Below, one piece after another: positions 586 through 42,531 of a stretch of DNA of 52,181 nucleotides. Under the pieces are notes generated by a model that was not told the DNA's origin, searched no databases, and saw only the letters and a list, made by a program, of their open reading frames with translations. Source of the DNA: a virus; IMG/VR virus record IMGVR_UViG_3300045988_143416, positions 1 to 52,181 of that record, one strand, 5' to 3'. A program made the position numbers and the translations under genes. Position 1 is the first letter of the stretch. Each line of letters begins with the position of its first letter.

Positions 586-803
586 TGGATATATCCGAGG
601 TTAAAAAGAACTTAAACAAACTTGTTACTTATCAGCCGACTAAAGAAAGCAAAGCAATAGATTACTATTTATCAGGTTGCATTTTACGGCGAAACAAGGA
701 AACAAGAGATATATTTTATCAAGCGGAAATCAAAGATATTAAGGCAAACAGCGTTATGATTGTTGATTTATCGCAGGTAACAGCAAAAGGACTAAAAAAA
801 TGA
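585..803 (+). CDS. Hypothetical protein
   Basis: ATG overlaps the dut stop (TAATG). It lies in a co-oriented, tightly packed gene run. Confidence 0.5.
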   Translation: MDISEVKKNLNKLVTYQPTKESKAIDYYLSGCILRRNKETRDIFYQAEIKDIKANSVMIVDLSQVTAKGLKK

Positions 804-1003
804 TAGTATGCAAAAAGAAACGGTGTGTATGGCGTGTCTATTGTGGCGAGGGCAAATACTATTGTCACAAAGCAGGCGATTGCCCGAATGTGGTTAAAGT
901 AAAAGATACTCTACCAAATGTAAAATGGGCAGGATTGGTTAACAATTCGCTTGGTATTAAATATTATGCGTCAAAACGAAACAAAAAGGGGAATAGTGAG
1001 TAA
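800..1003 (+). CDS. Hypothetical Cys-rich small protein
   Basis: Start overlaps the upstream stop. The protein contains several Cys residues. Confidence 0.5.
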   Translation: MIVCKKKRCVWRVYCGEGKYYCHKAGDCPNVVKVKDTLPNVKWAGLVNNSLGIKYYASKRNKKGNSE

Positions 1004-2975: not shown

Positions 2976-3638
2976 ATGAGCAATTTATTATTTGACCCCA
3001 TTAAAACACAGGCAAGCGTTACGGATAGCGTGCTTGTCGGCTTTAGTGGCGGTAAGGATAGCATAGTAACGCTTGATTTGTGCGTTAAGTATTTTAAAAA
3101 TGTTGTGCCGTTCTTTATGTATCTTGTACCCGATTTACAATTTCAAGAAAGAATGTTAAAGCGGTATGAGGATAAATACGGCATAGAAATTATTAGACTG
3201 CCACACTTTGAGTGTTCAAACTTCTTAAAGTATGGCAGTTTTACAATGTTTGACCCGACTGTTGATATTGTAGGTATTACAGACACTTACGAATATTTAA
3301 GGCAGAGAACGGGCATACATTGGATTGCAGCGGGTGAGCGTTGTGCTGATAGTATCGTGCGTAACGCAATGATTAAGCAGAGCGGTAGCATAGACTACAA
3401 GCGAGGACGCTTTTACCCTATTGCATATTGGAACAAACAAGAAGTATTACAGTACATCAAATACAAGAAACTGTATTTAAGCCCCGAACAAAAGAAAATC
3501 GGCTTTTCTTTTCGCAGTTTGGCAGGGTGTGAGTTGGCAACAATCAAAAATATGTACCCCGCAGATTATGAAAAGATATTAAAGGTTTATCCCTTTGCAG
3601 GGGCGGCAGTTGAAAGATTTGAAAAGTACGGCAAGTAA
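2976..3638 (+). CDS. PAPS-reductase-family PP-loop ATP pyrophosphatase
   Basis: PP-loop GFSGGKDS, then IAAGERCADSIVRNA and YPIAYWNKQEVLQYI, matching the CysH/DndC-type pattern. Confidence 0.85.
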   Translation: MSNLLFDPIKTQASVTDSVLVGFSGGKDSIVTLDLCVKYFKNVVPFFMYLVPDLQFQERMLKRYEDKYGIEIIRLPHFECSNFLKYGSFTMFDPTVDIVGITDTYEYLRQRTGIHWIAAGERCADSIVRNAMIKQSGSIDYKRGRFYPIAYWNKQEVLQYIKYKKLYLSPEQKKIGFSFRSLAGCELATIKNMYPADYEKILKVYPFAGAAVERFEKYGK

Positions 3639-3651: not shown

Positions 3652-3852
3652 GTGGCAAGGACATTTTCAAGAACGCATAAAATTGTTAGAACACAACCCG
3701 CTTCTTATTATTCTTCACAATCAAAAGAGGAAAGAGCAAGAAACGCACGAAATCATATGAGTATGTTGCGTGATAAGCCTATGGTAAGAGTTCCTAACAG
3801 AATGAAAGTAAACAGTATGAAAAAGCGTTCAAGCGGTGGAGCAGGAGGCTAA
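3652..3852 (+). CDS. Basic mini-protein, 66 aa, C-terminus ...SSGGAGG
   Basis: GTG start behind AGGTGA. Rich in Arg and Lys. Tightly packed between the PP-loop and ParB-like genes. Confidence 0.45.
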   Translation: MARTFSRTHKIVRTQPASYYSSQSKEERARNARNHMSMLRDKPMVRVPNRMKVNSMKKRSSGGAGG

Positions 3853-3856
3853 ACGA

Positions 3857-4519
3857 ATGGCACAAAGCAAATATCAAAAATTCAAGATTGAAACAATCAG
3901 CAGAGCAGATATTAAGAACGCCGACTATAACCCACGCATTATGGATAAAGAGGCAAAGAAGCGATTAAAAGCAGGCTTAAAGAAACACGGGCTTGTATCA
4001 ACTTTGACTTGGAATAAGCGAACGGGCAACCTTGTAGGCGGTCACCAAAGGCTTGAACAGTTAGACGCTTTAGAGCGTAACAAAGATTATACACTTGATG
4101 TTTGCGTGATTGATGTTGACGAACAAGAAGAAGCAATATTGAATGTGCAGTTAAACAACCCGTCAATGCAGGGCGATTGGGATTTAGACGCATTAGCCGA
4201 TATGACAGAGCAATTTGACATTGACTTTGACGATATGGGCTTTACTAAACTTGATGTGGACTTTATGTATGACGGTGACGAGAAGTTTACACAGCTATTT
4301 GAAACACCTGAAGCACAAGAAGTCAAACAAGGGCTTGAAGAAGTCAAGGCGGCAAGGCAGGCGGGCAAAGAGCGTATGCAAGATAAGAATAACATTAACT
4401 TTTATTCTATCATTGTTTTTGAGGACGAAAAGCAACGCACCGATTTTTACAAGAAAATCAGCACGCCGCCGAGTGAAGAATATTTGACTGTTGATAAAAT
4501 AATGCGAATAGCAAAGTAA
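3857..4519 (+). CDS. ParB/sulfiredoxin-fold (ParB-like nuclease domain) protein
   Basis: Motif NLVGGHQRLEQL in a ParBc-like N-terminal domain. Start moved to ATG 3857, 8 nt after AGGAGG (3843-3848). Confidence 0.75.
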   Translation: MAQSKYQKFKIETISRADIKNADYNPRIMDKEAKKRLKAGLKKHGLVSTLTWNKRTGNLVGGHQRLEQLDALERNKDYTLDVCVIDVDEQEEAILNVQLNNPSMQGDWDLDALADMTEQFDIDFDDMGFTKLDVDFMYDGDEKFTQLFETPEAQEVKQGLEEVKAARQAGKERMQDKNNINFYSIIVFEDEKQRTDFYKKISTPPSEEYLTVDKIMRIAK

Positions 4520-4520
4520 A

Positions 4521-4542
4521 AGGGCGGTTATTATACCGCCCT
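4521..4542. terminator. Bidirectional intrinsic terminator
   Basis: AGGGCGGT-loop-ACCGCCCT between convergent genes. Confidence 0.7.
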
Positions 4543-4722
4543 TGATGTTGTCTTTTTTGGTCTTTTTGATGTTGTATCTTTATATGTTAACTGCAATGTG
4601 CACCCGTTTAAATCAGCGTATATATAACGGCTGTTAAAACGGCTTACATTCAATTTTAAGCCTTTGGGCAATGTACCATAGCCCTGAATATAAATATCAT
4701 TTGCAAGTGTTGTTGTTTTCAT
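4531..4722 (-). CDS. Hypothetical protein, 63 aa
   Basis: Start moved to the internal ATG (MKTTTLAND...) preceded by AAAGGGGG. Confidence 0.5.
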   Translation of the reverse strand: MKTTTLANDIYIQGYGTLPKGLKLNVSRFNSRYIYADLNGCTLQLTYKDTTSKRPKKTTSRAV

Positions 4723-4735: not shown

Positions 4736-4954
4736 TTAAGCAAATACAGATAACGCAAGCATAAATGCTGCGGCTTCACGGTCACTTGAAATAAAGTCAC
4801 CACGGTACTTGACAAATTCGCCTACAAATTCTTTATGATTTGGCACAAATTCATCAAATGCGGTTACGGCTTCTTTATAGCCCGCTACATTATTATGATT
4901 GTAGAGAAATTCATATTCTTTGTTGAATTGGTCTAAAAATTCTTTGATATTCAT
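4736..4954 (-). CDS. Hypothetical protein
   Basis: 72-aa ORF in a co-oriented three-gene antisense cassette. Confidence 0.55.
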   Translation of the reverse strand: MNIKEFLDQFNKEYEFLYNHNNVAGYKEAVTAFDEFVPNHKEFVGEFVKYRGDFISSDREAAAFMLALSVFA

Positions 4955-4971: not shown

Positions 4972-5226
4972 TTATGCTGTCAAGCGGTAATCATAGTCAA
5001 CAAATACAAATGTATTACCGCCTTGCAATATCTCGCCTGTACGCTCGTCACGGTCGTAATTTTCGTATTTCATTGCTGTGCTTTCAATCTCTTTTTTGTC
5101 AATGGCTAATTCTTTAATATTTACCCAAATTGCATAGCCGTCATAAGATACACCGACACGGCGGTTATTGTAGCCGTGTTCTTTTAATTCTTTGCGAATT
5201 GCTGCAAGTCTTTCATCATCTGTCAT
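4972..5226 (-). CDS. Hypothetical protein; weak resemblance to polyvalent-protein-associated domains of conjugative elements
   Basis: First gene behind the minus-strand operator promoter. The AAIRKELKEHG...YDRDERTG pattern is recalled from LPD-type domains, with low certainty. Confidence 0.55.
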   Translation of the reverse strand: MTDDERLAAIRKELKEHGYNNRRVGVSYDGYAIWVNIKELAIDKKEIESTAMKYENYDRDERTGEILQGGNTFVFVDYDYRLTA

Positions 5227-5282
5227 AGTATTTACCTTTCTACGATTATAGCCCGTCGGCTTTATTTCTTATCTTTGTATAT

Positions 5283-5311
5283 ATTGTATCACAAAAGTGA
5301 TATAAAATCAA
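5283..5311 (-). promoter_or_regulatory. Promoter (minus strand) with palindromic operator 5287-5302
   Basis: On the minus strand: TTGATT, 17 nt, TACAAT. TATCACAAAAGTGATA overlaps the spacer and -10. Confidence 0.55.
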
Positions 5312-5369
5312 TAGTAAAATAGTGAAAAAATGCACAAATATCAATGTAAAACTTTGTGAATTATGCCTA

Positions 5370-5398
5370 TTGATATTATAACACATTTGTGATATTAT
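5370..5398 (+). promoter_or_regulatory. Promoter with operator 5379-5394
   Basis: TTGATA, 17 nt, TATTAT. TAACACATTTGTGATA overlaps the spacer and -10. Confidence 0.6.
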
Positions 5399-5455
5399 AT
5401 AAATGTAATGAGGGGCAGGCAATAATAAATAGCCCCCGTACAGAAAGGTAAGACA

Positions 5456-5623
5456 ATGAAAGAGTACATTTGTAGATTAGTTAATAATGAGGGCTTTATT
5501 ATAGACGGTGCTTTTGTTACTGCAAAGAATAAAAAAGAAGCATTAGAAAAGTATTTGATTATTCACCCATACGCTAAAACCGATAAATGCGTATTTGATA
5601 AATATACAGTTGAAAGAGCGTAA
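5456..5623 (+). CDS. Hypothetical small protein, 55 aa
   Basis: ATG behind the conserved leader hairpin and CAGAAAGGTAA SD. Below the ORF-track cutoff. Confidence 0.5.
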   Translation: MKEYICRLVNNEGFIIDGAFVTAKNKKEALEKYLIIHPYAKTDKCVFDKYTVERA

Positions 5624-5637
5624 GAGGGGGTAACGGT

Positions 5638-5772
5638 ATGTTAGAGTATAAAAGTGCTATTGTAGACGAGTGCGGCGACATTGTTTATTGGTGTGAAAAT
5701 TTGACTGAAAATGAGATTAGAGAAATACTCGCAAATCATATTGAATGGCGTAGAACTTGCATAGAAATATAA
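5638..5772 (+). CDS. Hypothetical small protein, 44 aa
   Basis: ATG behind AGAGGGGG. Stop TAA at 5770-5772. Confidence 0.4.
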   Translation: MLEYKSAIVDECGDIVYWCENLTENEIREILANHIEWRRTCIEI

Positions 5773-5793
5773 TGCTAAATAAAGCAATAGACA

Positions 5794-5826
5794 AAAGCGG
5801 TTGAGCAAATCAGCCGCTTTTTTGTG
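5794..5826 (+). terminator. Intrinsic terminator directly upstream of terL
   Basis: 11-bp stem AAAGCGGTTGA/TCAGCCGCTTT (one G-U pair), then TTTTTTG. Confidence 0.7.
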
Positions 5827-5851
5827 TTGTTTTTGATGTGATGTAAGGGCG

Positions 5852-7087
5852 GTGGTAAAAATAAATATTGATGTAAAGATAAACCCCGTATATTTTCCGT
5901 ATCTTGATAAACCGCAATTTGTACAGATATTTTACGGTGGCTCGTCAAGTGGTAAATCTTATTTCAACGGACAAAAGATTGTACTTGATAATATGCACGG
6001 CGTTAATTGGCTTTGTTGTCGTAATGTTGCTAAAACAATGCGTAACAGTATATTCAATGAGGTAACAAAGGCAATAATTAAAATGAATTTGAGCGAGTAT
6101 TACAGGATAAACCGCTCGGATATGGTTATTACTAACACCCTGAATAATAAGCAAATACTATTTGCGGGGCTTGATGATGTTGAAAAAGTCAAGTCAATTA
6201 CACCGATTGAGGGCGTACTCGAAAGGATATTTGTAGAAGAAGCAACAGAGATAAAGTATGCCGCCTATAAGCAATTAACAAAGCGTTTGCGTGGTTATAG
6301 CGAACACCGCAAAGGTATTATTTTAGCATTTAACCCTATCTTAAAATCACATTGGATATATCAAACATTTTTCGGCGGTTGGCAAGACGACAAGAATTGT
6401 TACGAAGATGATAATTTACTAATCTTAAAGACCACCTACAAGGATAATTTGTTTTTGACACCCGAAGATAGAGAGCAATTAGAGAATGAGAGCGACCCAT
6501 ATTTCTATAATGTGTATTCACTCGGTAATTGGGGCATACTCGGCAACATTATCTTTAAGAATTGGCACACAGAGGATTTAAGCGAACAATCAAAGACTTT
6601 CGACCATTTATATTATGGTTGCGACTTTGGTTATTCCTCCGACCCTAACGCTTTGATAAAGGTACATATTGATAAGACCCGCAAAAAGATTTATATACTT
6701 GATGAATTTTATCAAGCGGGAATGAATGATGATGAACTTGTGAGAGTATCACGCAAATTTGTTAAAGACGATTATATCACCTGCGATAGTGCAGAGCCGA
6801 AAACGATTGACTATTTAGCAAATCACGGCGTAAATGCTACACCTGCTGTAAAGGGTGCGGATAGTATCAATCGTGGCATAAGGTGGTTGCAAACATACGA
6901 AATAATTGTTGATGTGCGTTGTCAAAATTTCAAAAACGAGATAGAGCAATACCATTGGCAAGAGGATAAGTACGGTAATGCAATGGCAAAGCCTGTTGAC
7001 GCAAACAATCACCTTTTAGACGCTTTGAGATATGCACTTGAACAAGAAATGTTAGAAGCAGAGGTAGAGGCAGGAATAAGAATATAA
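5852..7087 (+). CDS. terL: Terminase large subunit (PBSX/XtmB-type)
   Basis: Walker A YGGSSSGKS, Walker B-like IFVEEA, and a C-terminal nuclease region. GTG start behind AAGGG. Confidence 0.9.
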   Translation: MVKINIDVKINPVYFPYLDKPQFVQIFYGGSSSGKSYFNGQKIVLDNMHGVNWLCCRNVAKTMRNSIFNEVTKAIIKMNLSEYYRINRSDMVITNTLNNKQILFAGLDDVEKVKSITPIEGVLERIFVEEATEIKYAAYKQLTKRLRGYSEHRKGIILAFNPILKSHWIYQTFFGGWQDDKNCYEDDNLLILKTTYKDNLFLTPEDREQLENESDPYFYNVYSLGNWGILGNIIFKNWHTEDLSEQSKTFDHLYYGCDFGYSSDPNALIKVHIDKTRKKIYILDEFYQAGMNDDELVRVSRKFVKDDYITCDSAEPKTIDYLANHGVNATPAVKGADSINRGIRWLQTYEIIVDVRCQNFKNEIEQYHWQEDKYGNAMAKPVDANNHLLDALRYALEQEMLEAEVEAGIRI

Positions 7088-7242
7088 TGTGTAATCACAA
7101 TTTTGTAACTGTTAATGATGTTAGAGTATGTCAAAAGTGCGGTATTACCGTTACTTTTGATAATAAAGTGCTATTTGATAGAAAAATAGCAAACTATAAA
7201 CCTAAAAAGAAGAAGCGAGGCAAGAAATGGCAAGGAAAATAA
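7087..7242 (+). CDS. Possible small zinc-ribbon protein, 51 aa
   Basis: ATG overlaps the terL stop. It has a CxxxxxxxxxCxxC pattern and a Lys-rich tail, overlaps the portal start, and has a weak RBS. Confidence 0.3.
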   Translation: MCNHNFVTVNDVRVCQKCGITVTFDNKVLFDRKIANYKPKKKKRGKKWQGK

Positions 7243-8714
7243 CTGAATTATATCCCGATTTTACGGCTTTTATTGATGAAATTGACGAAAACGGTATAAC
7301 ACCCGAATTACTAAGCAAGATTATCAATAAACACAGAGGCAATTCACTTTATAACAAGAAACTGTATGACCGCTATATGACTATGGACGGTGGCGTACCT
7401 ATCTTTAAGCGTGAGCCGAGATTTGAAGAAGAAGAAAAGCCGATAAACAACAAAATCAATAATGACTTTTTTAGTGAAATTGTAGATTTTAAGACAGGCT
7501 ATTTTGCAGGCAGACCGATTACATACAGTTATGCGCAGAATGACGAGGCAGAAGAAGCAACGGGCGGTAAAGAAGCAGTTGAAAAGGCTACAAAAGCACA
7601 AAGCGACTTTGTAACCCGTAACAATATGTACGGCGTGGATATGGAAACAACGAAGTTTGCAAGCATATATGGTTATGCGGGCAGGCTTTTTTACATTGAC
7701 ACAGAGGGCAACGAAAGAGTAATGCCCGTACAAGGCTTTGAAACTATCATTTTGTCAAAGACTGATATATCCGAGCCGAAATATGCAATACGCTATTATC
7801 CTGTATGGGATATAAACAATGTAAAGTCGTGGGTAGTTGAATTTTACGACAATACAAACATTTATACATACAAAGGCTATCTATCCAAATTAGAGCAGGA
7901 CGGCGAGCCTAAACCGCATATGTTCGACTTATGCCCGCTGCAAGGCATAGCGAACAATAAAGAGATGTTGGGCGACGCTGAAAAAGTGCTATCTTTGATT
8001 GATGATTACGACAAAGTGTTGTCGGATAATTCAAACGAGGTAGAGGCATTCGTACACGCTTATTTGATTTTTGAAAATCTAAAAATAAGTGAAGATACTA
8101 TAAAAAAAGGTCAAAAGAACGGCTCTTTTGTATTTCCACCAACAGGAACACAGCAGGGCAAGGCTTATTTCTTAACAAAGAATATAAACGACAGTTTTAC
8201 AGAACACCATTTACAGCGTGTGCAGGATAATATCTATCGTTTCAGTAAAACGCCTAATTTGAATGATGAAACTTTCGGAGCGGCGAGCGGTGTATCTCTC
8301 AAATTCAAATTACACGGGCTTGAAACAAAATGCGGTATGTTTGAGGCAAAAATGATGGACGCAGGACAATATATGTGGCGTGTTCTTGCGAGTGCTTGGG
8401 CGAAAAAGCAAATTGCATTTGACCCGTTACAGGCTGATATGGACTTTGTGCGTAACTTCCCGCTTGACCTTGCAAACGAGGCAACAACAGCACAGGCATT
8501 AAAGGCTATCGGCTTGCCTGATGAAATAGTTTACAGTCAGTTGTCATTTATTGATGATGTTGACTATGTTCTATCCCTTAAAGAAAAGGAAATGAACGAT
8601 ATAACACCGTTGCAAAAAGATACGCCCGAAGATGAAGAAACAGACGAAGAAGCAGACGAAGAAAACAACGACAAAGAAGAAAAAGAAAAAAAGGCAAAAA
8701 AGGATAATGAATAA
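7227..8714 (+). CDS. Portal protein (SPP1 gp6-like)
   Basis: 495 aa. The N-terminal pattern and acidic C-terminal tail are typical of SPP1-type portals. It follows terL. Confidence 0.9.
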   Translation: MARKITELYPDFTAFIDEIDENGITPELLSKIINKHRGNSLYNKKLYDRYMTMDGGVPIFKREPRFEEEEKPINNKINNDFFSEIVDFKTGYFAGRPITYSYAQNDEAEEATGGKEAVEKATKAQSDFVTRNNMYGVDMETTKFASIYGYAGRLFYIDTEGNERVMPVQGFETIILSKTDISEPKYAIRYYPVWDINNVKSWVVEFYDNTNIYTYKGYLSKLEQDGEPKPHMFDLCPLQGIANNKEMLGDAEKVLSLIDDYDKVLSDNSNEVEAFVHAYLIFENLKISEDTIKKGQKNGSFVFPPTGTQQGKAYFLTKNINDSFTEHHLQRVQDNIYRFSKTPNLNDETFGAASGVSLKFKLHGLETKCGMFEAKMMDAGQYMWRVLASAWAKKQIAFDPLQADMDFVRNFPLDLANEATTAQALKAIGLPDEIVYSQLSFIDDVDYVLSLKEKEMNDITPLQKDTPEDEETDEEADEENNDKEEKEKKAKKDNE

Positions 8715-10330
8715 TGCCGATTTCAAAAAAGACGCTTGACCGCTATTTTGCTGAATTAAGGCGAATTGAAGCCCACAGAACAGCGGGGGCAGAAAAGAAA
8801 ATAAGACGCTTATACAAAGCCCTTATGAAAGAGTTAATAGGCTTTCTTGGTAATGAGTATGCACAATATGCGGATAGTGACGGTAATTTGAGTATTGCAT
8901 TATTGCAATCACAAAGCCGTTACGCCCGTTTCCTTGAAGAAGTCGAAAAGCAGGTTGACGGTTTAAGCCCGAAATATGCGAAACTTATAAAAGATACCGT
9001 AGAGGAAACATACAAAAATTGCTATGAGGGTATGGTTGAAGCGGTACAAAAATCAAATAACAATGCTGAACTTGCTGCAAATTTGCAAGGTTTGTCAGTA
9101 AGACCCGAAGTAATGAAAAATGCCGTTGAAAATCCCGTCAGTGGCTTAACTTTGCCTGATAGGTTAGAAAAGCACAGGGCAGAAGTTATATACAGCATAA
9201 AGCAAGAGTTAAATATGGCTTTAGTTGTCGGGGATAGGTACGAAACCGTTGCAAAGAAATTGTCAAACAGACTTGATATTGATTATCGAAAGGCAATTAC
9301 AATAGCACGAACAGAAACGCACCAAGTACAAGAGGGCGGATTTATGGATTGTGCCGTTGATTTGCAACAATGCTTTGACGGTAGCGAGTACATTTATGCG
9401 GCAACTTGGCGAACTATGAAAGATGAAAAAGTACGCCCACAAGTAGCAGCATATAAGAGAAAAGCAGGCGTAAAAGCACGAAAAAAGTATACAGCAGGTG
9501 CAAGGGCATATTTTGGCAAGCCTAACCATATCACAATGGAGGGGCGAACAGTTAAAGCAGGCGAATACTTTAAATTTGACGACGGCGTTAAAACAAAAGC
9601 CCCGTCACATAGTGGCGTAGCAGGACACGATTGTAATTGTCGTTGTATTCTTGAATACAATATAATGACATTTGCCGAATTTGAAAAGGCAACAGGCAAG
9701 CCCGTAACTACTGCAAGCGTTCACGGAAGCATTAAGCAACAAATGAACGAAAACGGCATTGCAAGCGTTAATTTACAGCGAACAACCGACGCAAAGGGTT
9801 TTGATACCTCTATCAAAGAAGCGATTAAATCACACCCCGTAGGGGCTTGTGTAGACGCCCACCCTTTGGACGAATTACAAAGTTATAAACTGTATTTGTC
9901 CGAAAATAAAATGGCAGGTGTAGCGGTTAAGCCTGACGGCGATATAACAGCAGTATTCAAAAATGCCGAATATAAACAGCGTGGGGCAGTTAATGATTTA
10001 ATCATTACAGCAAGAGCAAACGGCGGTACAAAAATGGACTGTTTCGGTATTAGCCTTGTTAATAGGTATGAGCAATGCGGCTATGTGCCTGTTGCAAGAA
10101 TACCATTTAATGACAAGTACATTGACGACCCGTATTTACTCAAAACACGCCCTGATGTTTATGTTATGATGAAAAATACAGACGACTTGCAAACAGTTAT
10201 TGAAAAGAACGCTAAAAAGGCTTACAAAGTATCTATGCAAGAGGAATTAGACAAACTGAAAACGATTGAAGATTACGACAAAGCATTGAGTTACCGTGAT
10301 AAGTTGTTAAAAGTGCAAGAGAGTAAATAA
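8714..10330 (+). CDS. Head morphogenesis protein (MuF/SPP1 gp7 family) with a C-terminal GNAT-like extension
   Basis: The MuF core runs through ARTETHQ...GHDCNCRCILEY. About 200 extra residues follow, with the GNAT-like pattern YKQRGAVNDLIITARANGGTKMDCF...RYEQCGYVPVA. Confidence 0.85.
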   Translation: MPISKKTLDRYFAELRRIEAHRTAGAEKKIRRLYKALMKELIGFLGNEYAQYADSDGNLSIALLQSQSRYARFLEEVEKQVDGLSPKYAKLIKDTVEETYKNCYEGMVEAVQKSNNNAELAANLQGLSVRPEVMKNAVENPVSGLTLPDRLEKHRAEVIYSIKQELNMALVVGDRYETVAKKLSNRLDIDYRKAITIARTETHQVQEGGFMDCAVDLQQCFDGSEYIYAATWRTMKDEKVRPQVAAYKRKAGVKARKKYTAGARAYFGKPNHITMEGRTVKAGEYFKFDDGVKTKAPSHSGVAGHDCNCRCILEYNIMTFAEFEKATGKPVTTASVHGSIKQQMNENGIASVNLQRTTDAKGFDTSIKEAIKSHPVGACVDAHPLDELQSYKLYLSENKMAGVAVKPDGDITAVFKNAEYKQRGAVNDLIITARANGGTKMDCFGISLVNRYEQCGYVPVARIPFNDKYIDDPYLLKTRPDVYVMMKNTDDLQTVIEKNAKKAYKVSMQEELDKLKTIEDYDKALSYRDKLLKVQESK

Positions 10331-10351
10331 AAAAGGGGCATAGCCCCTTTT
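10331..10351. terminator. Bidirectional intrinsic terminator
   Basis: AAAAGGGGC-ATA-GCCCCTTTT between convergent genes. Confidence 0.7.
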
Positions 10352-10661
10352 AAATATTATACTTTTGATATTCACTTATCATAATATCGGCAAGTCGCTG
10401 ATTTATCATTGATTTTTGATACTCTCTTACATTGCCGTTAGGGTAGTAAACTTTAATCATCAATGTACCTTTCTTGCTTATTCTTTCTTCTGTTTTTACA
10501 TTGTGATTAGTGATAAATTCTTCAACTGTTTCATATGTTTTAGTTGTATCAACATTAAAGATTTTATCAAGTTTCTTTCTGTCTTTTGCGGGTATGTTTT
10601 TAAAAAGAACACCGCCGTAGTATGAATAAGTTGTTTTATCAATTTTTACTGTATTACTCAT
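10350..10661 (-). CDS. Hypothetical protein, 103 aa (reverse-strand gene inside the head module)
   Basis: Start moved to MSNTVKID..., behind the conserved GCAGAAAGGTTAA SD. Confidence 0.55.
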   Translation of the reverse strand: MSNTVKIDKTTYSYYGGVLFKNIPAKDRKKLDKIFNVDTTKTYETVEEFITNHNVKTEERISKKGTLMIKVYYPNGNVREYQKSMINQRLADIMISEYQKYNI

Positions 10662-10715
10662 AATTTTAACCTTTCTGCATTTATAGGCTGTCGCCTTTCT
10701 TTCTTTGTTGATTAT

Positions 10716-10744
10716 AGTATAACACAAATGCGATACAATGTCAA
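10716..10744 (-). promoter_or_regulatory. Promoter (minus strand) with operator-like dyad 10720-10735
   Basis: On the minus strand: TTGACA, 17 nt, TATACT, with a TG extension. TAACACAAATGCGATA is in the same register as the other operator sites. Confidence 0.55.
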
Positions 10745-10861
10745 TATAATTTTGAATATTCAATATGTAAAATAATTACAAATATTTTGATTAAATTTTG
10801 TGCATTATGTCAATATACTAAAAAAGTATTTTATATTATAATATTGTAGAGGTGAAAATAT

Positions 10862-11071
10862 ATGTTGACGCAAAAAGAAATGGGCGATATGTCCGCAAAA
10901 CAGATTATTGAACGCCTTGAACAAGATTACAAAGACGATAAAGACGCTTTAGAAGAAATAAAGCGGGCTAAACAAAATATAAAGTACATTGAAAGCCAAA
11001 AGGACTATAAAGGGCAATCACCGTGGCAACACGCTGTATCGCTTGCGGGTATGCTTGATTTATGGGGCTAA
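10862..11071 (+). CDS. Hypothetical protein
   Basis: 69-aa ORF with ATG behind GAGGTGA. Confidence 0.5.
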   Translation: MLTQKEMGDMSAKQIIERLEQDYKDDKDALEEIKRAKQNIKYIESQKDYKGQSPWQHAVSLAGMLDLWG

Positions 11072-11135
11072 AACAATAGCGTGGGTTCTCCTTGTTCTCT
11101 ACCTTTCTAAAATATTTTTCGCTCACGCTATTGTT
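11072..11135. repeat. 12-bp perfect inverted repeat with a 40-nt spacer
   Basis: AACAATAGCGTG (11072-11083) pairs with CACGCTATTGTT (11124-11135). Confidence 0.6.
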
Positions 11136-11142
11136 AGTTATA

Positions 11143-11175
11143 AGCAGAAAGAACATTGTTTCTTTCTGCTTTTTA
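11143..11175 (+). terminator. Intrinsic terminator
   Basis: AGCAGAAAGAA-loop-TTCTTTCTGCT followed by TTTTT. Confidence 0.75.
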
Positions 11176-11184
11176 TATGCAAAT

Positions 11185-11211
11185 AAACGCTTCTATATGG
11201 AGCGTTTTTTT
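11185..11211 (+). terminator. Second tandem intrinsic terminator
   Basis: AAACGCTTC-TATAT-GGAGCGTTT followed by TTTTTTT. Confidence 0.65.
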
Positions 11212-11275
11212 ATATTTAAAAACGCTTTCTATACGGAAGCAAACATTATTCTATAAGGATATGGAGGAAAAAGTA

Positions 11276-12010
11276 ATGACAACAGAACAAATCACAACCG
11301 CTGAAAAGACGCTTGACGCAGTAAAAGCAACAAACGGTAGAAATATTTTACCGTTAAATTTACAGTTATTCGCAGACGGTGGCGACGGCGACGGCGACGG
11401 AGCAAACGGAAGCAATACAGGCGATAGCGGAACAGACGGCGACGGCGATAATAAAGCACAAAATCAAAATGCGGCATTATCGACGGAAGCACTTGACAAA
11501 CTTATTCAGTCAAGAGTTGACAAAATCACCGCTGACCTCGGTAAAAAGAACGCAACATTGCAAAAGGAACTTGATAATCTAAAAAAGGCGAAGTTGTCTG
11601 ACGAAGAGATTAAAAATCTTGAAATTGCCGACAAAGAAAAAGCATTGACAGAAAAGGAACAAGCCTTACTTGAAAGAGAAAACAGACTGTATGCTATTAA
11701 GGCAATCAAAGAAGCAGAACTTGACGACGGCAGTGACTTATCGCTTGAACTTATTGACTTTGTAATGGGCGAGGACGAAAAGGCTATTGACGAAAAAGTA
11801 AAGTCTTTCAAAAGCCTTGTTGAAAGATTTGTTACTGCAAAGGTTGACGCTACTTTTAAGGCTAACGGCAGAACGCCAAACGGAAGCGGAAAAAGTGGCT
11901 CGGCTGATGATAAAAAAACAAGTGTTGCGGCTGAACTTGGCAAAGCCAAAGCAGAGCAACAAAAAAAGTCAAATGACATTTTAAATTATTATATTGGAGG
12001 TAACAAGTAA
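11276..12010 (+). CDS. Scaffolding protein (DUF4355-like)
   Basis: Start moved to MTTEQ, behind GGAGGAAAAAG. LNLQLFA motif, Gly/Asp-rich linker, long coiled coil. Located upstream of the capsid gene. Confidence 0.7.
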   Translation: MTTEQITTAEKTLDAVKATNGRNILPLNLQLFADGGDGDGDGANGSNTGDSGTDGDGDNKAQNQNAALSTEALDKLIQSRVDKITADLGKKNATLQKELDNLKKAKLSDEEIKNLEIADKEKALTEKEQALLERENRLYAIKAIKEAELDDGSDLSLELIDFVMGEDEKAIDEKVKSFKSLVERFVTAKVDATFKANGRTPNGSGKSGSADDKKTSVAAELGKAKAEQQKKSNDILNYYIGGNK

Positions 12011-35826: not shown

Positions 35827-35860
35827 AGGGGCTATCTTAATTGATAGCCCCTCTTTTTTT
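35827..35860. terminator. Bidirectional intrinsic terminator
   Basis: AGGGGCTATC-loop-GATAGCCCCT followed by TTTTTTT. Confidence 0.8.
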
Positions 35861-36116
35861 ATTGTTCTTCTAATTCGGATAGTTGCCATTTCAATTCGTT
35901 TTTCATTTGTTCGAGTTTTTCAATTTCGGCTTTTTTCTTTTTGTAAATATTTTCAATTTCATAAATCGAAAGTTTTGTTTTAAGGGCTTCGCCTTTGTAA
36001 TATGCGTCAATCATTTGCCCGCCTTTTCTTGCTGCCTTGTCTAATTCTTCAATGTCTCTGTTGATACCTTTTACAGCATATTCAAGAATTTGTTTTTGAT
36101 TTAACATTTTAATCAC
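35859..36116 (-). CDS. Hypothetical coiled-coil protein
   Basis: 85-aa ORF, divergent from the 36318 operon. Confidence 0.5.
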   Translation of the reverse strand: MIKMLNQKQILEYAVKGINRDIEELDKAARKGGQMIDAYYKGEALKTKLSIYEIENIYKKKKAEIEKLEQMKNELKWQLSELEEQ

Positions 36117-36162
36117 CCTTTTTTATAATATCATATTTATAATATCTTATCTCTACATTATT

Positions 36163-36191
36163 ATTATACCACTTTTGTGATAATATTAAAC
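36163..36191 (-). promoter_or_regulatory. Extended -10 promoter (minus strand) with operator 36167-36182
   Basis: On the minus strand TGGTATAAT, with a poor -35. TACCACTTTTGTGATA is in the standard register. Confidence 0.4.
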
Positions 36192-36235: not shown

Positions 36236-36264
36236 TTGATTTTATACCACATTTGTGATATTAT
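36236..36264 (+). promoter_or_regulatory. Promoter with operator 36245-36260
   Basis: TTGATT, 17 nt, TATTAT. TACCACATTTGTGATA overlaps the spacer and -10. Confidence 0.6.
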
Positions 36265-36317
36265 ATAAGTGTAATAAAGAGAGGGCAACAGCCCTTTAAG
36301 AAAGAAAGGTAATTATT

Positions 36318-36629
36318 ATGAAACTTATTACAAAAGAAATTGAGAGAAAACTCAATAAAACACCGATTTACAGCAAAGACGGTCAAGGCGTTGACGCTGA
36401 AATCATTGTAAAATTTTTCAACCCGTGCGGTGCTGCTACTTGGCTTATTACAGAGGCAGAGAAGCAAGACAACGGCGACTATCTATTATATGGCTATATC
36501 ACATTAGGCTATGGCTATGAATGGGGCTATGTGATGTTGTCAGAGTTGCAGAAAATTAGAAACGGTTACGGCTTAGGTATTGAGCGTGACAGATACGCAC
36601 ACGGCACAGTTAAAGAGAATGTAGCATAA
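36318..36629 (+). CDS. DUF2958-like protein
   Basis: The pattern VKFFNPCGAATWLITEAE...GYGYEWGYVMLSEL...GIERD matches my recollection of DUF2958. Confidence 0.6.
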   Translation: MKLITKEIERKLNKTPIYSKDGQGVDAEIIVKFFNPCGAATWLITEAEKQDNGDYLLYGYITLGYGYEWGYVMLSELQKIRNGYGLGIERDRYAHGTVKENVA

Positions 36630-36695: not shown

Positions 36696-36935
36696 ATGTT
36701 AGTAAGAGATAAAGACAGTCAAGAGGGCTATATTCACATTTGCGACGATTATAAAAGATATATTAAGTCAGCATTAAAAGAGCGTATGCCGATTTATGTA
36801 CACGATATGAAAGTTTACACGCTTATCGAAACAAAAAAAGGTCACGAACTCAAAGATATAAAATATTGTCCTTATTGTGGGGCTGAAATAGAAAAAGAAG
36901 AAAGAAAGCAGGTATATAACAATGAGATACTATGA
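36696..36935 (+). CDS. Hypothetical protein with a C-terminal CPYCG zinc-ribbon-like motif
   Basis: 79-aa ORF behind AAAGGGTGA. Confidence 0.5.
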   Translation: MLVRDKDSQEGYIHICDDYKRYIKSALKERMPIYVHDMKVYTLIETKKGHELKDIKYCPYCGAEIEKEERKQVYNNEIL

Positions 36936-37842
36936 AATCAACGAAACAGCAGCAAGACAAGCCCGTCAAATGTGGTCTTTTAGCGATTATGAACACGGCA
37001 GTAAGACAGCAGAATACAGGGCAGCGGTTGACAGATGTTATGCAGAAGTTGACCGCCTACCCGAAGAATTGAAAGAGAAAGGGGCGACAATGGCAGACAG
37101 ATACGCCCGCCGCCTTGCAGAGTGGTATAACAAGCAATTTAGAATTGAAATGATGTGTCCGTCCGTTATGATTAGTGGCGGCAGTAATTTCCCCGTAAGA
37201 AAGAAAGAGAAACAGAACGCCGCACAAGATAGGCATTATCAATTATACAAAGAAATTCAGCAGATACCCGAAAAGATAGCAGGGCTATTAAGAGGCACAA
37301 ATGTCATTAAATCAAGCGACGCAGACGCTTTAGAGAAATTGCAACAGAAAGTTGAAAAACTTGAAGCGTGGCAAACCGAAATGAAAGAGGCAAACGCATA
37401 TTACAGAAAGCACAAATCATTGAAAGGGTACAAAGATTTTAGCGACGAAAGAGCAGAGAAACTTGACAAGGCTATTTCAGAAACTTGGTATCAAAAGCCC
37501 TTTGCACCTTTTGAATTAACAAACAATAATGCAAAGATTAAAAGTGCAAAGGCAAGAATTGCAGAGATTGAAAGATTAAAGAAAGAAGCAGCAGAAGCGG
37601 CAGAACAGCCCGAAAGCGAAAATACAACAACTTTATTTAAGATTGTTGAAAATGCCGAAATAATGCGTTTGCAAGTGATTTTTGACGGCAAGCCAAACGC
37701 CGAAGCAAGACAGATTTTGAAAAGCAACGGCTTTAGGTGGGCACCGTCAAATAGTGCTTGGCAAAGACAATTAACAGACAATGCAAGATATTCAGGTAAG
37801 AGAGTAAAAGAGCAGTTACAAGAGTTAGGCGAGATTTACTAA
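36922..37842 (+). CDS. DUF3560-like protein
   Basis: C-terminal FDGKPNAEARQILKSNGFRWAPSNSAWQRQ pattern, recalled from DUF3560. Confidence 0.55.
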   Translation: MRYYEINETAARQARQMWSFSDYEHGSKTAEYRAAVDRCYAEVDRLPEELKEKGATMADRYARRLAEWYNKQFRIEMMCPSVMISGGSNFPVRKKEKQNAAQDRHYQLYKEIQQIPEKIAGLLRGTNVIKSSDADALEKLQQKVEKLEAWQTEMKEANAYYRKHKSLKGYKDFSDERAEKLDKAISETWYQKPFAPFELTNNNAKIKSAKARIAEIERLKKEAAEAAEQPESENTTTLFKIVENAEIMRLQVIFDGKPNAEARQILKSNGFRWAPSNSAWQRQLTDNARYSGKRVKEQLQELGEIY

Positions 37843-37884: not shown

Positions 37885-37913
37885 TTGAAAATGTAACACA
37901 AAAGTGATACAAT
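37885..37913 (+). promoter_or_regulatory. Promoter with operator 37894-37909
   Basis: TTGAAA, 17 nt, TACAAT. TAACACAAAAGTGATA overlaps the spacer and -10. Confidence 0.6.
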
Positions 37914-37970
37914 ATAGATGTAATGAGGGGTCAGAAACTATAAGCCCTCTGTACAGAAAGGTGAATTACA

Positions 37971-38141
37971 ATGAAGATTTACACAGCAGACAAAGAAGCA
38001 GGCAATAAGATAGAAGCGTTCAACACGATTGAAGAAGCGAAAAAGGCAATTATTGCTTACGAAGAAGAAGATAAACACGACGGCACATATACGCCCGACT
38101 TTTATGATGTTGTAAACGAAAATTGCGAAAGTCTTATCTAA
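37971..38141 (+). CDS. Hypothetical acidic small protein, 56 aa
   Basis: ATG behind the conserved leader hairpin and CAGAAAGGTGA. Below the ORF-track cutoff. Confidence 0.5.
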   Translation: MKIYTADKEAGNKIEAFNTIEEAKKAIIAYEEEDKHDGTYTPDFYDVVNENCESLI

Positions 38142-38243
38142 CGCAGAGCGACTACCACCCTTGCAAGGGTGGTAGGTAATGCGGTCAGGCAGACGGTCGC
38201 AAACCCGACAGCCGCAAACAATAAAGAAAGGGGGGGCGTAAGA

Positions 38244-38455: not shown

Positions 38456-38872
38456 ATGAAAGCAATATCTATTAAGCCGCATTTTGCACATCAAATATTG
38501 TGTGGCACAAAAACAACAGAATACAGAACTTGGCAGACAAAATACAGAGGCAACTTGCTTATATGCAGCAGTGCAGCACCGAAAGAGAAAGGCACAATAA
38601 GCGGTCACGCTTTGATTGTTTGCAGGCTGAACGACATTGAGCCGTTAAGTAAAAGAGAGTTAAGAGAAATCGGCGTTGATGAAAACCCCGACAAGCCTAT
38701 TTACGGTTGGCGGCTGACAGACTTTAAAACTATAAAGCCGTTTCCTGTAAAGGGCAAACTAAATCTTTACGAGGTTGACGACAATTTAATTGAGTACATT
38801 GACGACGAGCAAATGACAAGCAAAGAACTTGACGAGGTATTCAACAAGTATTTCAAGCCGTTATTTGATTGA
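38456..38872 (+). CDS. ASCH domain protein
   Basis: N-terminal MKAISIKPHFAHQILCGTKTTEYRTW...RGNLLI pattern is typical of ASCH domains. Confidence 0.65.
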   Translation: MKAISIKPHFAHQILCGTKTTEYRTWQTKYRGNLLICSSAAPKEKGTISGHALIVCRLNDIEPLSKRELREIGVDENPDKPIYGWRLTDFKTIKPFPVKGKLNLYEVDDNLIEYIDDEQMTSKELDEVFNKYFKPLFD

Positions 38873-38966
38873 GTGCAAACGGGGCTTATAATACAGCGTG
38901 TGCAGTATGAAAAAGCCCCGCATTGTGGCATAATTAAGTTGAATTTTAGGCAAACGGAGGTAGCGT

Positions 38967-39191
38967 ATGACATTACGAGAAAGGCGAGTAAAAAAAGGTT
39001 ATTCACAAAATGACCTTGCCGTTGCGTCAGGTGTAAGCAAAAGGGCGATACAGTGTTATGAGCAAGAAATAAGGGATATAAACGGGGCACATATAAAATC
39101 ATTGTGCGACCTTGCGATAGCACTTGATTGTAAAATATCAGATTTGCTAACTGACGAAGAACTGAAAAAGCGGTACAAAATGGTAAAATAA
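38967..39191 (+). CDS. XRE-family HTH protein (last gene of the operator-controlled operon)
   Basis: HTH_3 pattern KKGYSQNDLAVASGVSKRAIQCYEQ. Confidence 0.75.
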   Translation: MTLRERRVKKGYSQNDLAVASGVSKRAIQCYEQEIRDINGAHIKSLCDLAIALDCKISDLLTDEELKKRYKMVK

Positions 39192-39518: not shown

Positions 39519-41072
39519 TTACACCCTCCTTTTCGTTTTTGTGTATAAACTCCACTCGGGCTGTCCGTGCGGTAGCTTATGCCCAATTTGTACAGCAGTG
39601 GGGGAGGCATAGAGAAATACCTCTATTACCTCATTATCAATCACGATTTTTTTTACAAAATTATTAAAAATGGTTTGCAAAACTTCATCATCTGTTGTGT
39701 CGGATATTGACAACATTTTATTGAGATAGTCAACAATCATAGCGTGTGAAATTGTCATTTTTGTTTGTTGCTCAATAGCCATAATTTGACTATCAATTTC
39801 CTTTGCTCTATCCTCACACTTTGTCATATGTTCAGCGACATAAGCATTGTTGACTAATTTTAATGACCTCAACTCCAACAACTCGGATATTTGAGACTCT
39901 ACAGTAGACAATTCCTTTTTCAGTTGTTTAAGTTTGCTTTTTTGGCTATCGGGATTTTCGCCTAATTTTACTATAATCTCATTTGCAATTTGATAAATCG
40001 ACTTTTCGTTTAATATGTGTTTCTTAATTTCATTCAATACGGTTTCTTCTAAATAATCTTTTCTTACCCTCTTGCAGGAACACTCGGCGTATGTTTTACT
40101 TGTGGAACATACATAGTATTTATAATCGTATTTCTTGCCACGCTGTACGCTTGCACTTCTTATCCCGAAAAAGTGCTTGCCACATTTTCCGCATATTATT
40201 TTTCCTGTTAAAGAGTATAAATCTTTTCGTTTGCGAGGTTTTACATAGGTTTGGCTCTTATGCCGTTGTTGTACTCTATCCCATAAGACTTTATCAATGA
40301 TAGGTGGAATTACATCATATACAACAATCGGCTCGTGTCCTTGTGCATTGTATCTTAATATGCCGATATAAAAATCATTCCGCAACATTCGGGCAATGGA
40401 GGTAATACCGAACGGCTTACCTTGCCTTGTCGAAGCCCCTATACTTTTAGTGTAATCTTGCAAATATTTCAAGGAATAGTTATCCGCATACAATTCAAAC
40501 AGTTTGTTGACAACCTCTTTTTCATATTCGTCAGGCGTGTACTTTTTCTTTTTCTTTTTACCGTTATCAAAGACGGTTTCTAATTTATAGCCATAAGGAA
40601 CAGTACCGCCTGTAAAATAACCTTGCTTTGCCATTTCTCGCATACTTGATTTTACAAAGTCCGATATAGTTTCACTTTGGAATTGGTCTATATCTGCAAG
40701 AACATTTATCATTAACCGTCCTGCACTTGTTTCGTCGTCCATAAGTTGAGTAATTGAGACTAACCGTACATTGTGCTTTTTGAACAATTTGCGGTACTTA
40801 TGACTTTCGTAAGCGTTACGGAATATGCGGCTGAATTTATAAACGACAATTACATCTATCAACTCATTTTTGACATCATTTATCAATTCGTGGAACGCTT
40901 CACGCCCTGCCACCTTTGTACCTGTTATTGCTTGGTCTATATATGTTTTAGTCAATGGCAGTCCTTGTTTGTTCAGGTATTCTTGACATTCAGACATTTG
41001 ATATTCGATTGAATATCCGTCGTCTTGTTTCGTGTCGGAATATCTTGCATATAACCCTGTTCGTTCGTTCAT
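39519..41072 (-). CDS. int: Large serine recombinase (integrase)
   Basis: N-terminal LYARYSDTKQ resolvase domain, recombinase domain, Cys-rich zinc ribbon (CGKCG...C..C) and a coiled coil. 517 aa. Confidence 0.9.
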   Translation of the reverse strand: MNERTGLYARYSDTKQDDGYSIEYQMSECQEYLNKQGLPLTKTYIDQAITGTKVAGREAFHELINDVKNELIDVIVVYKFSRIFRNAYESHKYRKLFKKHNVRLVSITQLMDDETSAGRLMINVLADIDQFQSETISDFVKSSMREMAKQGYFTGGTVPYGYKLETVFDNGKKKKKKYTPDEYEKEVVNKLFELYADNYSLKYLQDYTKSIGASTRQGKPFGITSIARMLRNDFYIGILRYNAQGHEPIVVYDVIPPIIDKVLWDRVQQRHKSQTYVKPRKRKDLYSLTGKIICGKCGKHFFGIRSASVQRGKKYDYKYYVCSTSKTYAECSCKRVRKDYLEETVLNEIKKHILNEKSIYQIANEIIVKLGENPDSQKSKLKQLKKELSTVESQISELLELRSLKLVNNAYVAEHMTKCEDRAKEIDSQIMAIEQQTKMTISHAMIVDYLNKMLSISDTTDDEVLQTIFNNFVKKIVIDNEVIEVFLYASPTAVQIGHKLPHGQPEWSLYTKTKRRV

Positions 41073-41949: not shown

Positions 41950-42059
41950 CTCTTATTAAATATTTAGCGATAGCACCATTTTAGCACACTTTGTTTACAT
42001 TGTGTAGAATTATGAAACATATATGTAACATTGTGATTATATTTTGTGAAAATTGCCGA

Positions 42060-42088
42060 TTGATTAAAAATAATTATAGTAGTATAAT
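42060..42088 (+). promoter_or_regulatory. Rightward early promoter
   Basis: TTGATT, 17 nt, TATAAT. Confidence 0.55.
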
Positions 42089-42127
42089 GATAACGAAAGT
42101 TAGCAATATTATTGTAATGATAACGAG

Positions 42128-42337
42128 GTGTCGCAAATTTTGATTAACAGCAGAGGAAACACCATACAAGATAGATTGTCGTTTGATATTGAATTAGCGA
42201 AAAACGCAAAAGATATAGAGAATAAAAAGGCGTTAGCATTTCAAGCACTCGGAGCAGTAGAAATAGCCGTAGAATTTGGACTAATTACATATTTAGAGTT
42301 TGAAAGATACATAAATAAGATTTTTGAAATAATTTAG
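42128..42337 (+). CDS. Hypothetical protein (start uncertain: GTG 42128 or TTG 42140)
   Basis: GAGGTG at 42125-42130 favours the in-frame TTG at 42140. Confidence 0.45.
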   Translation: MSQILINSRGNTIQDRLSFDIELAKNAKDIENKKALAFQALGAVEIAVEFGLITYLEFERYINKIFEII

Positions 42338-42358
42338 GGCAACCGCCCTTTGTTTTTT
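42336..42358 (+). terminator. Intrinsic terminator
   Basis: AGGGC-AACC-GCCCT followed by TTGTTTTTT. Confidence 0.6.
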
Positions 42359-42472: not shown

Positions 42473-42531
42473 AGTAACTGTAATGAGGGGGTACAAAGAA
42501 CTACAAGCCCCCATACAGAGAGGTAATAACA

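Follow-up and report, generated by a model that had tools for sequence, protein, structure and literature searches.

Six dispersed promoters of a temperate gut-Firmicute phage share a dyad that may be the operator of a small XRE protein

The closest described counterparts of the system considered here are acr-aca operons, such as those of Aca1 of Pseudomonas phage JBD30, Aca2 of ZF40 and Aca11 and Aca13 of Streptococcus mobile elements, in which a strong promoter with an inverted repeat precedes small, fast-evolving cargo genes and, at the end of the operon, the gene of a small dimeric helix-turn-helix (HTH) regulator that binds the repeat. The operators of Aca1 have a CAC/GTG core, ATTAGGCACAATGTGCCTAAT, and lie in the acr promoter (PMC8633003), and Aca11 acts on two promoters through inverted repeats placed between their -35 and -10 (PMC12282945). 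Most Aca families are predicted to co-regulate up to three neighbouring operons, as a 2026 study has shown for Aca14, and RNA motifs that are structured and lie within the 5' untranslated region (5' UTR) accompany Aca systems (PMC13551039). We describe here a comparable arrangement in the IMG/VR virus record IMGVR_UViG_3300045988_143416, a stretch of 52,181 nucleotides that is a temperate phage of gut Firmicutes and is hereafter called the window. Six dispersed promoters of the window, P1 to P6, contain the same 16-bp dyad; at P6 this inverted repeat overlaps the core promoter, and the last gene of the P6 operon encodes a small HTH protein of 74 amino acids (aa) and of XRE type, hereafter abbreviated by its start coordinate as 38967.

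The resemblance to acr-aca operons has clear limits. The window operator has N4 instead of the N3 of Aca1 and is flanked by TA, not by GGC/GCC, and 38967 is a generic XRE protein for which no chain named as an Aca appeared among the PDB matches. Its presumptive targets are six promoters at three loci up to 33 kb apart rather than adjacent operons, three of them inside the packaging/head module; moreover, the cargo contains no recognisable Acr or anti-defence gene and the 5'-UTR hairpins are unlike the DNA dyad. By analogy the window system would work like an Aca system, and we claim no match to a named Aca family. One phage repressor acting on many dispersed short operators is also the principle of the P1 C1 operators, the stoperators of mycobacteriophages L5 and Bxb1 and the conserved inverted repeats of phiC31, with which the window shares the presence of many operator copies genome-wide, several of them at accessory or early promoters. 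In these systems it is the immunity repressor that binds, and its operator occurs also at the immunity switch, whereas the divergent region at 41950-42127, the presumed lysis-lysogeny switch of the window, has no dyad even when two mismatches are allowed, as an initial annotation made from the sequence alone had noted for exact matches. The sites of P1 and L5 are, in addition, asymmetric and often function as roadblocks, unlike dyads that overlap the -10.

A common dyad in six promoters

The pattern TAHCAC-N4-GYGATA, i.e. TAHCACNNNNGYGATA, has matches in the whole window only at 5287, 5379, 10720, 36167, 36245 and 37894, which are the six sites listed in the initial annotation. In the scan for chance matches which that annotation had called for, shuffled sequence gave a mean of 0.03 matches, and the observed count of seven (the site at 5287 is a perfect palindrome and is hence scored on both strands) was reached in 0 of 100 shuffles. 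Allowing up to two mismatches adds just three sites (29390, 39366 and 43304), all without promoter context and within chance expectation. The general form across the six promoters is TAnCAC-N4-GTGnTA, which spans 16 bp from about -26 to -11 and has half-site centres 10 bp apart, so that the half-sites lie on one face of the helix. A hairpin role for the dyad, in DNA or RNA, was discarded, because the dyad lies 5' of the predicted start site and its stem is just 6 bp long and AT-rich.

The register of the dyad is the same at all six promoters: its last TA is the first TA of the -10 hexamer, and its first 14 nt form the final 14 nt of a 17-nt spacer. Judged by sequence match to the criteria for sigma-A extended -10 promoters, the 17-nt spacer, TGn and TAnnnT are found in six of six and TTGAnn in five of six, P4 having the poor -35 already noticed in the initial annotation. 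The extended TGn -10 which that annotation took as a trait of P4 is indeed present there, but it is common to all six promoters because the promoter-proximal half of the dyad, GTGnTA, supplies the TGn; this corresponds to the -16 TRTG region of Gram-positive promoters. Similarly, the atypical G/C base of the site at 10720 exists, but in promoter orientation it falls in the distal half (TATCGC), where the ortholog of P3 in a related genome (L002) has the consensus TATCAC.

Part of the surrounding sequence is also repeated. P2, P5 and P6 share about 100-110 nt that include an upstream TTTGTGnATTnTGC element, the promoter and a GTAATGAGGGG...CCCC...TACAGAAAGGT leader, and this repeat (upstream TTTGTGnATTnTGC, promoter, GTAATGAGGGG hairpin, ACAGAAAGGT) is common to a seventh cassette that starts at 42427; the region of P3 is homologous to the divergent region of P1 and P2. 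The seventh cassette, which lies in the early region just after a terminator at 42336-42349, can be used as a control within the genome, for its upstream element, its GTAATGAGGGGG hairpin and its CAGAGAGGT ribosome-binding site are the same as elsewhere, but its spacer has no dyad, nor do its orthologs in relatives. Conversely, P1, P3 and P4 combine the dyad with different leaders, so that it appears as an add-on to the cassette and not as its passenger.

The dyad and the 38967 protein in other phages

Unchanged copies of the 74-aa protein are listed for 197 blocks of the metagenome collection, the longest contigs with them being about 50-54 kb, and ten metagenomic genomes encoding it (the W-type set) were compared at P4 to P6. 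Their dyads are constant at T1, A2, C4, C6, G11, G13, T15 and A16 and variable at positions 3, 5 and 14 and in N4; there is hardly any variation in the promoter and leader around them. P4 is TATCAC-AAA[A/T]-GTGGTA in ten of ten genomes, P5 is TA[T/C]CAC-[A/T]TTT-GTG[T/A]TA with the exception of L078 (GGGTTA), and P6 is TAACGC-AAA[T/A]-GTGATA. A scan of IMG/VR with the pattern TTGA-N5-TAnCAC-W4-GTGnTA-NNAT retrieved 53 loci, about 29 of them distinct and nearly all with a full TTGACA -35. In about 20 of these 29 matches in unrelated phages, by hand count, position 3 is complementary to position 14. When positions 1-3 were left free, the two positions were complementary in 36 of 75 among the matches listed, against 25% expected, and the outer dinucleotide was most often TA (19 of 75 among the same matches). 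From both scans it follows that CAC-N4-GTG dyads on an extended -10 are a widespread class of phage promoter with maintained symmetry, as expected for dimer-binding sites. The proposal of the initial annotation that the dyad is the operator of a dimeric HTH protein therefore gains a constrained symmetric element, and is well supported by comparison but unproven.

Several lines of evidence point to 38967 as the candidate binder. No strong terminator separates P6 from the 38967 gene, and the gene order is the same in 20 related genomes. Among 136 loci that had been picked by DNA pattern alone, homologues of 38967 (39-56% identity) are found in six lineages, in five of which the gene lies on the same strand and no more than about 1.2 kb downstream of a dyad-promoter; in one case (L018/L023) the HTH start codon is only 22 nt past the -10. 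More generally, an XRE-like open reading frame (ORF) is present downstream of 12 of 88 dyad-promoters, the base rate being 2.0% of positions at the same loci, and none of the other window proteins shows a comparable association with dyad-promoters in the DNA-selected loci. The reverse selection gives a consistent picture, for viral loci picked by the 38967 protein alone contain 13 strict dyads where 0.115 are expected. One 58-kb phage among these protein-selected loci has at least eight dyads, arranged in divergent pairs; six relaxed variants of the dyad occur in another locus (L059), and in a Clostridia metagenome-assembled genome (MAG; L100) TATCACTGCAGTGATA precedes the HTH gene by 84 bp. 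Queries with the single protein returned four related loci, and the search for homologous proteins four close clusters. On these grounds and those given below we regard 38967 as the most likely binder of the dyad, acting as an Aca-like autorepressor, with a confidence that is modest but on the favourable side of even.

Profile searches of the PDB place 38967 nearest to the restriction-modification C proteins C.BclI and C.AhdI, to CylR2 and to SinR, with E values of 1e-7 to 1e-6 for the C proteins and CylR2; no Aca chain is among the PDB matches, whether the search is made with the single sequence or with the profile. C proteins and CylR2 bind palindromes that overlap promoters and autoregulate. 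They are XRE dimers of about 66-77 aa and the closest solved structures to 38967 by profile, but there are no restriction-modification genes under the dyad-promoters of the window and the similarity is at the level of the XRE fold only.

A sister clade (L054, L087-L096, L262 and L263), hereafter L-type, encodes an HTH allele, P0002, that is 84-85% identical to 38967 and occurs in 236 blocks of the metagenome collection. These genomes have the same cassettes, yet CAC is present in 0 of 26 distal halves, which read TACTTC, TACTGC, TACCGC, TATCGC or TACTTT. For one L-type genome, represented by L054 and L262, the comparison includes the promoters 33 kb from the HTH gene: P1' is the near-palindrome TACTGC-TTTT-GTAGTA, P2' is TATCGC-AAAT-GTGTTA and P3' is TACTGC-ATTT-GTGGTA, whereas P1' on another L-type contig reads TACTTC-TTTT-GCAGTA. 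In P1' both halves are altered and the symmetry is kept (T:A becomes C:G at positions 3/14, and C:G becomes T:A at positions 4/13), as would be expected of a site for a dimer whose preference had changed. In these genomes the type of dyad follows the 38967 allele.

Weighing of the alternatives

The window encodes four XRE-type HTH proteins, as the initial annotation had recognized and as Pfam HTH_3 matches above the gathering threshold confirm for 38967, 41083, 41617 and 43338. The dyad could thus be the operator of the CI-like 41617, the Cro-like 43338 or 41083, in which case the main lysis-lysogeny circuit would silence or time the accessory units, much as with the dispersed operators of P1 C1 or the L5 stoperators. 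All dyad-bearing relatives have genes of the CI-like and Cro-like types, a contig with at least eight dyads (L048/L065) encodes homologues of 41617 and 43338 with 63% and 54% identity, and two direct TAGCAC hexamers adjoin the CI gene. We consider this reading unlikely, however, given that the switch region lacks the dyad and has repeats of its own, that neither the CI alleles (identity 95-99% or about 85%) nor the occurrence of 41083 sorts with dyad type, and that 41083 lacks a close homologue in dyad-bearing L078, L079, L080 and L082 (the best match having 37-38% identity over about 50 aa); furthermore, the DNA-selected loci yield homologues of 38967 downstream of the dyad and not a specific family of 41617 or 43338. 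A transcription factor of the host might bind the dyad instead, so that the morons would answer to host physiology and the two operator types would reflect different host strains. This would accommodate the frequency of CAC-W4-GTG dyads on the extended -10 of unrelated phage promoters, mostly without a 38967 homologue in the fetched DNA, as well as the operator change in the L clade that the HTH residues leave unexplained. It does not account for the strong enrichment of 38967-family genes on the same strand and right downstream of such promoters, and no global-regulator box of Firmicutes with this sequence and spacing is known to us, those of CIRCE, Cheo/LexA, Rex, NrdR, PlcR and the DnaA box being different in sequence or spacing; we therefore think it improbable.

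The dyad might also have no dedicated binder, its palindrome being incidental to recent duplication or gene conversion of one cassette combined with selection for a TRTG/TGn extended -10, an alternative that the initial annotation had raised in the form of duplicated promoter cassettes. That alternative is true in part: the dyads of P2, P5 and P6 do sit in the longer repeat shared with the cassette at 42427, the homology of the P3 region to that of P1 and P2 is of the same nature, and the proximal half-site is a promoter element. Yet the seventh cassette and its orthologs keep the same flanks without the dyad, P1, P3 and P4 combine other leaders with the same dyad, and the dyad core is invariant in the population while positions 3, 5 and 14 and N4 vary. 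Together with the complementarity of positions 3 and 14 in unrelated phages and the symmetric alteration of the L-type P1', this makes the explanation improbable. Least probable of all in our view, and by now a faint prospect, is an activator or a spacer-remodelling factor of MerR type, in favour of which one might cite that P4 has a poor -35 and that the site is in the spacer, as are the binding sites of MerR-type activators. MerR-type promoters have spacers of 19-20 nt, whereas five of the six promoters combine near-consensus -35 and -10 elements with an optimal 17-nt spacer and TGn and would not need an activator; 38967 itself is a single-domain XRE protein of 74 aa without an effector domain.

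The assignment of the dyad to 38967 has, for its part, to contend with a series of contrary observations. The proximal half-site is an ordinary extended -10 or -16 promoter element; being explained by promoter constraints, it leaves the distal half TAnC[A/G]C as the only independent evidence. In cellular genomes, distant homologues of the protein (40-56% identity) are accompanied by the dyad at just one of 80 loci, so that the link between HTH and dyad is confined to a phage subfamily and the idea that distant GTDB homologues share the dyad was discarded; the best GTDB matches, with 53-56% identity, are from Acutalibacteraceae, Clostridia and other gut MAGs. The correlation between allele and operator could in part be produced by co-inheritance, for P4 to P6 are physically linked to the HTH gene and the W and L clades differ throughout. 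Since look-ups of the P3 protein and of terL gave only the window, one W-type record and short contigs, genome-wide covariation rests on a single L-type genome (L054 with L262) and the window. The L-type protein, moreover, shows little change in its recognition helix (A27T), and its residues Q4, T27 and G34 are the family consensus and adjoin CAC dyads elsewhere; because homologues with T27 stand beside CAC dyads, the residue pattern does not explain the operator change, and a specificity switch through recognition-helix residues was discarded. The L clade may have relaxed operators or another binder. The HTH gene could, in addition, have some basal expression partly independent of P6 if the putative internal promoter at 38865-38892 is active. 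Finally, the cargo shows no recognisable anti-defence homology in searches of PDB, Pfam, PHROG, PADLOC and NCBIfam: no cargo protein has a significant match to a PDB chain, and hence none to a solved Acr, and the other databases give no functional lead, with nothing convincing in PADLOC or NCBIfam.

If 38967 is nonetheless the repressor of these promoters, an XRE dimer bound to the dyad would overlie the extended -10 together with the first bases of the -10 and would sterically exclude RNA polymerase. P6 would be negatively autoregulated, the repressor being the last gene of its own operon, and with accumulating repressor the remaining five promoters would be silenced jointly. Such a circuit would follow the acr-aca logic of a strong early burst after DNA entry and subsequent self-limitation, and the near-consensus promoters, 5'-terminal hairpins and strong ribosome-binding site would fit a high-level, stable early mRNA. 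Binding, repression and timing, like an anti-defence role of the cargo, are what we infer from the comparisons above, and co-repression of the six units by a 38967 dimer on the dyad seems to us, taken as a whole, somewhat more probable than its absence. Far more tentatively, the cassette may be a portable wiring module: small genes landing behind it would join a phage-wide early counter-defence regulon of one Aca-like XRE repressor that extends from the packaging module to the attR-proximal end, with operator and repressor co-diversifying (TAnCAC in W-type, TACTnC in L-type) and the twister ribozyme of the P6 operon tuning the feedback.

Units headed by the dyad-promoters and their genomic setting

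The units behind the dyad-promoters (table 1) are morons in the classical sense, composed of promoter, 5'-UTR hairpin, strong ribosome-binding site, small gene or genes and terminator, the closing terminator being present in at least three of four units. Morons were reportedly defined by Hendrix and colleagues as independent promoter-gene-terminator units between conserved phage genes, and the units of the window resemble them in having their own promoter and terminator and in being polymorphic for presence or absence, as seen with the P3 unit. Morons are usually considered to be individually regulated, whereas the window units share a promoter-operator and several also share a leader; units with this common promoter-operator would form one putative regulon. 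The description of the controlled genes as mostly small accessory genes stands, for the cargo ORFs either have no known domain or belong to DUF2958, DUF6980, DUF3560-like and ASCH proteins.

The suggestion that one of these promoters, P2, might serve terL as the only visible promoter upstream of it has lost weight, since the terminator with a 12-bp stem at the end of the P2 unit separates the genes of that unit from the start of terL. P2 is thus unlikely to be a dedicated terL promoter, and its candidacy as a late promoter was rejected for the same reason. The P3 unit as a whole (10331-10762, comprising terminator, 103-aa gene, leader and dyad-promoter) is missing from a relative with a 100% identical terL (L299, region 8235-8341 compared), a clean insertion/deletion of about 430 bp that identifies the unit as a mobile insertion of its own. 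Between P2 and terL this relative has five additional small ORFs, which makes this position a cargo hotspot. The P1, P2 and P3 units are absent near terL in relatives with about 70% terL identity.

All six 5'-UTR hairpins are followed by the ribosome-binding site AGAAAGGT. Their stems are unlike between units (GGGGC/GCCCC, AGGGC/GCCCT, GAGGG/CCCTC, AGCC/GGCT, AGGC/GCCT and one AT-rich), and their folding z-scores are only -1.1 to -2.7. They could be 5'-terminal stabilisers of the mRNA or, by analogy with what has been described for Aca1 and Aca2, protein-binding RNA motifs. A repeated cassette of promoter and stem-loop heading many small novel ORFs, plausibly as a substrate for cargo shuffling, recalls the PeSL cassettes of T4-type phages. 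In the latter, however, the stem-loop precedes the early promoter and acts as a terminator, whereas the hairpins of the window are in the 5' UTR, downstream of a promoter with an operator embedded in its spacer, and thus do not correspond to PeSL. An RNA element of another kind was seen in a related phage, L059, where an int-alpA motif (754-825, plus strand; Rfam RF02996, 42.9 bits) directly follows a promoter at 721-749 with the perfect consensus TTGACA / 17 nt / TATAAT and TG; the window has no equivalent.

The P6 operon contains, directly after the stop codon of its first, variable cargo ORF and ahead of the conserved module of small ORF, ASCH and HTH genes, a Twister-P5 self-cleaving ribozyme. 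Relatives of both W-type and L-type have it in an identical location, as does a phage that is more distant (L063, 61 bits), and it would separate the repressor-encoding part of the P6 mRNA from the variable cargo. Between the ASCH and HTH genes, the segment 38865-38930 (plus strand) has a TTGATT / 16 nt / TATAAT site (38865-38892) that overlaps a GGGGCTT...AAGCCCC hairpin without a T-run after it, and could act on the HTH gene as an attenuator or as a promoter inside the operon.

The window, which corresponds to the ENA metagenome contig ena:ERZ27261170:k119_120230 of 52,181 bp, is a tailed phage; its further genes include those for the portal (of SPP1 type), for the scaffold and major capsid proteins and for a Mu-F-like protein. 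A megablast search with positions 5000-12000 gave zero matches to GenBank phages, so that there is no annotated relative for this region. Just 5' of the P1/P2 island are genes for a PAPS-reductase-domain protein (2976-3638, plus strand) and a protein with a ParB-like nuclease/partition domain (3836-4519, plus strand), neither of them preceded by a dyad-promoter; PAPS reductases of this sort have been treated as candidate functions of DNA modification or anti-defence in variable phage regions (PMC13551039). The switch region has two sets of repeats (41971-41992 and 42076-42126), namely a direct repeat of TAGCACnnTTT with 11 bp between the units, whose hexamer is a variant of the dyad half-site, and two 21-nt direct repeats, ATAnTAnTnTAATGATAACGA, 30 bp apart and downstream of the rightward promoter. 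Both sets are probable operators of the immunity proteins.

Table 1. Features of the window that are discussed in the text
Feature	Position	Strand	Details
P1	5283-5311	-	TTGATT / TTATATCACTTTTGTGA / TACAAT; dyad 5287-5302 (TATCAC-TTTT-GTGATA)
P2	5370-5398	+	TTGATA / TTATAACACATTTGTGA / TATTAT; dyad 5379-5394
P3	10716-10744	-	TTGACA / TTGTATCGCATTTGTGT / TATACT; dyad 10720-10735 (TATCGC-ATTT-GTGTTA, promoter orientation)
P4	36163-36191	-	GTTTAA (poor -35) / TATTATCACAAAAGTGG / TATAAT, TGG before -10; dyad 36167-36182
P5	36236-36264	+	TTGATT / TTATACCACATTTGTGA / TATTAT; dyad 36245-36260
P6	37885-37913	+	TTGAAA / ATGTAACACAAAAGTGA / TACAAT; dyad 37894-37909, in spacer and overlapping -10
Seventh promoter-leader cassette	42427-42531	+	drives gene 42532-42876; spacer AATAATGTAAAAAATAG, no dyad
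P1 cargo	4972-5226, 4736-4954	-	two ORFs
P2 cargo	5456-5623	+	55-aa ORF; also a 44-aa ORF
P3 cargo	10350-10661	-	103-aa ORF
P4 cargo	35859-36107	-	82-aa ORF
P5 cargo	36318-36629, 36696-36935, 36922-37842	+	DUF2958; DUF6980-like ORF; 306-aa DUF3560-like protein
P6 operon	37971-38141, 38456-38872, 38967-39191	+	first ORF, then twister ribozyme and small membrane ORF; ASCH protein; HTH gene
Twister-P5 ribozyme	38142-38208	+	Rfam RF02684, 45.3 bits (gathering 37.6)
XRE/HTH_3 protein 38967	38967-39191	+	74 aa; last ORF of P6 operon; HTH_3 35.5 bits (cut-off 23)
5'-UTR hairpin of P1	5250-5261	-	
5'-UTR hairpin of P2	5404-5442	+	
5'-UTR hairpin of P3	10685-10696	-	
5'-UTR hairpin of P4	36127-36146	-	
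5'-UTR hairpin of P5	36280-36297	+	
5'-UTR hairpin of P6	37919-37955	+	
Leader regions examined	5402-5460, 36268-36322, 37917-37975	+	
Leader regions examined	5224-5279, 10659-10712, 36105-36159	-	
Terminator	4520-4543		bidirectional
Intrinsic terminator closing P2 unit	5793-5821	+	12-bp stem; 31 nt ahead of terL
Terminator	10331-10351	-	
Terminator	35827-35852		
terL	5852-7087		Terminase_3
Large serine recombinase	39519-41072		

An Aca-like autorepressor would not in itself surprise a specialist; what makes this phage a good experimental system is its putative dispersed regulon of six units, along with a portable cassette, an embedded twister and two operator types that occur in nature. Should 38967 not bind the dyad, there would still be a well-defined strong promoter cassette that is useful for annotating the transcription units of uncultured Firmicute phages. 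Should it bind, the window would offer a compact natural example of one small repressor that coordinates six scattered accessory units in an abundant lineage of gut phages, and the two operator types with two repressor alleles would be a ready test of how operator and repressor specificity co-evolve. To our knowledge, almost no counter-defence or host-manipulation functions are known for Clostridia and their relatives. If the proposed regulation is true, the dyad-promoter would be a guilt-by-association flag, and the small ORFs behind it, both in the window and in the related phages, would become prioritised candidates for precisely such functions.

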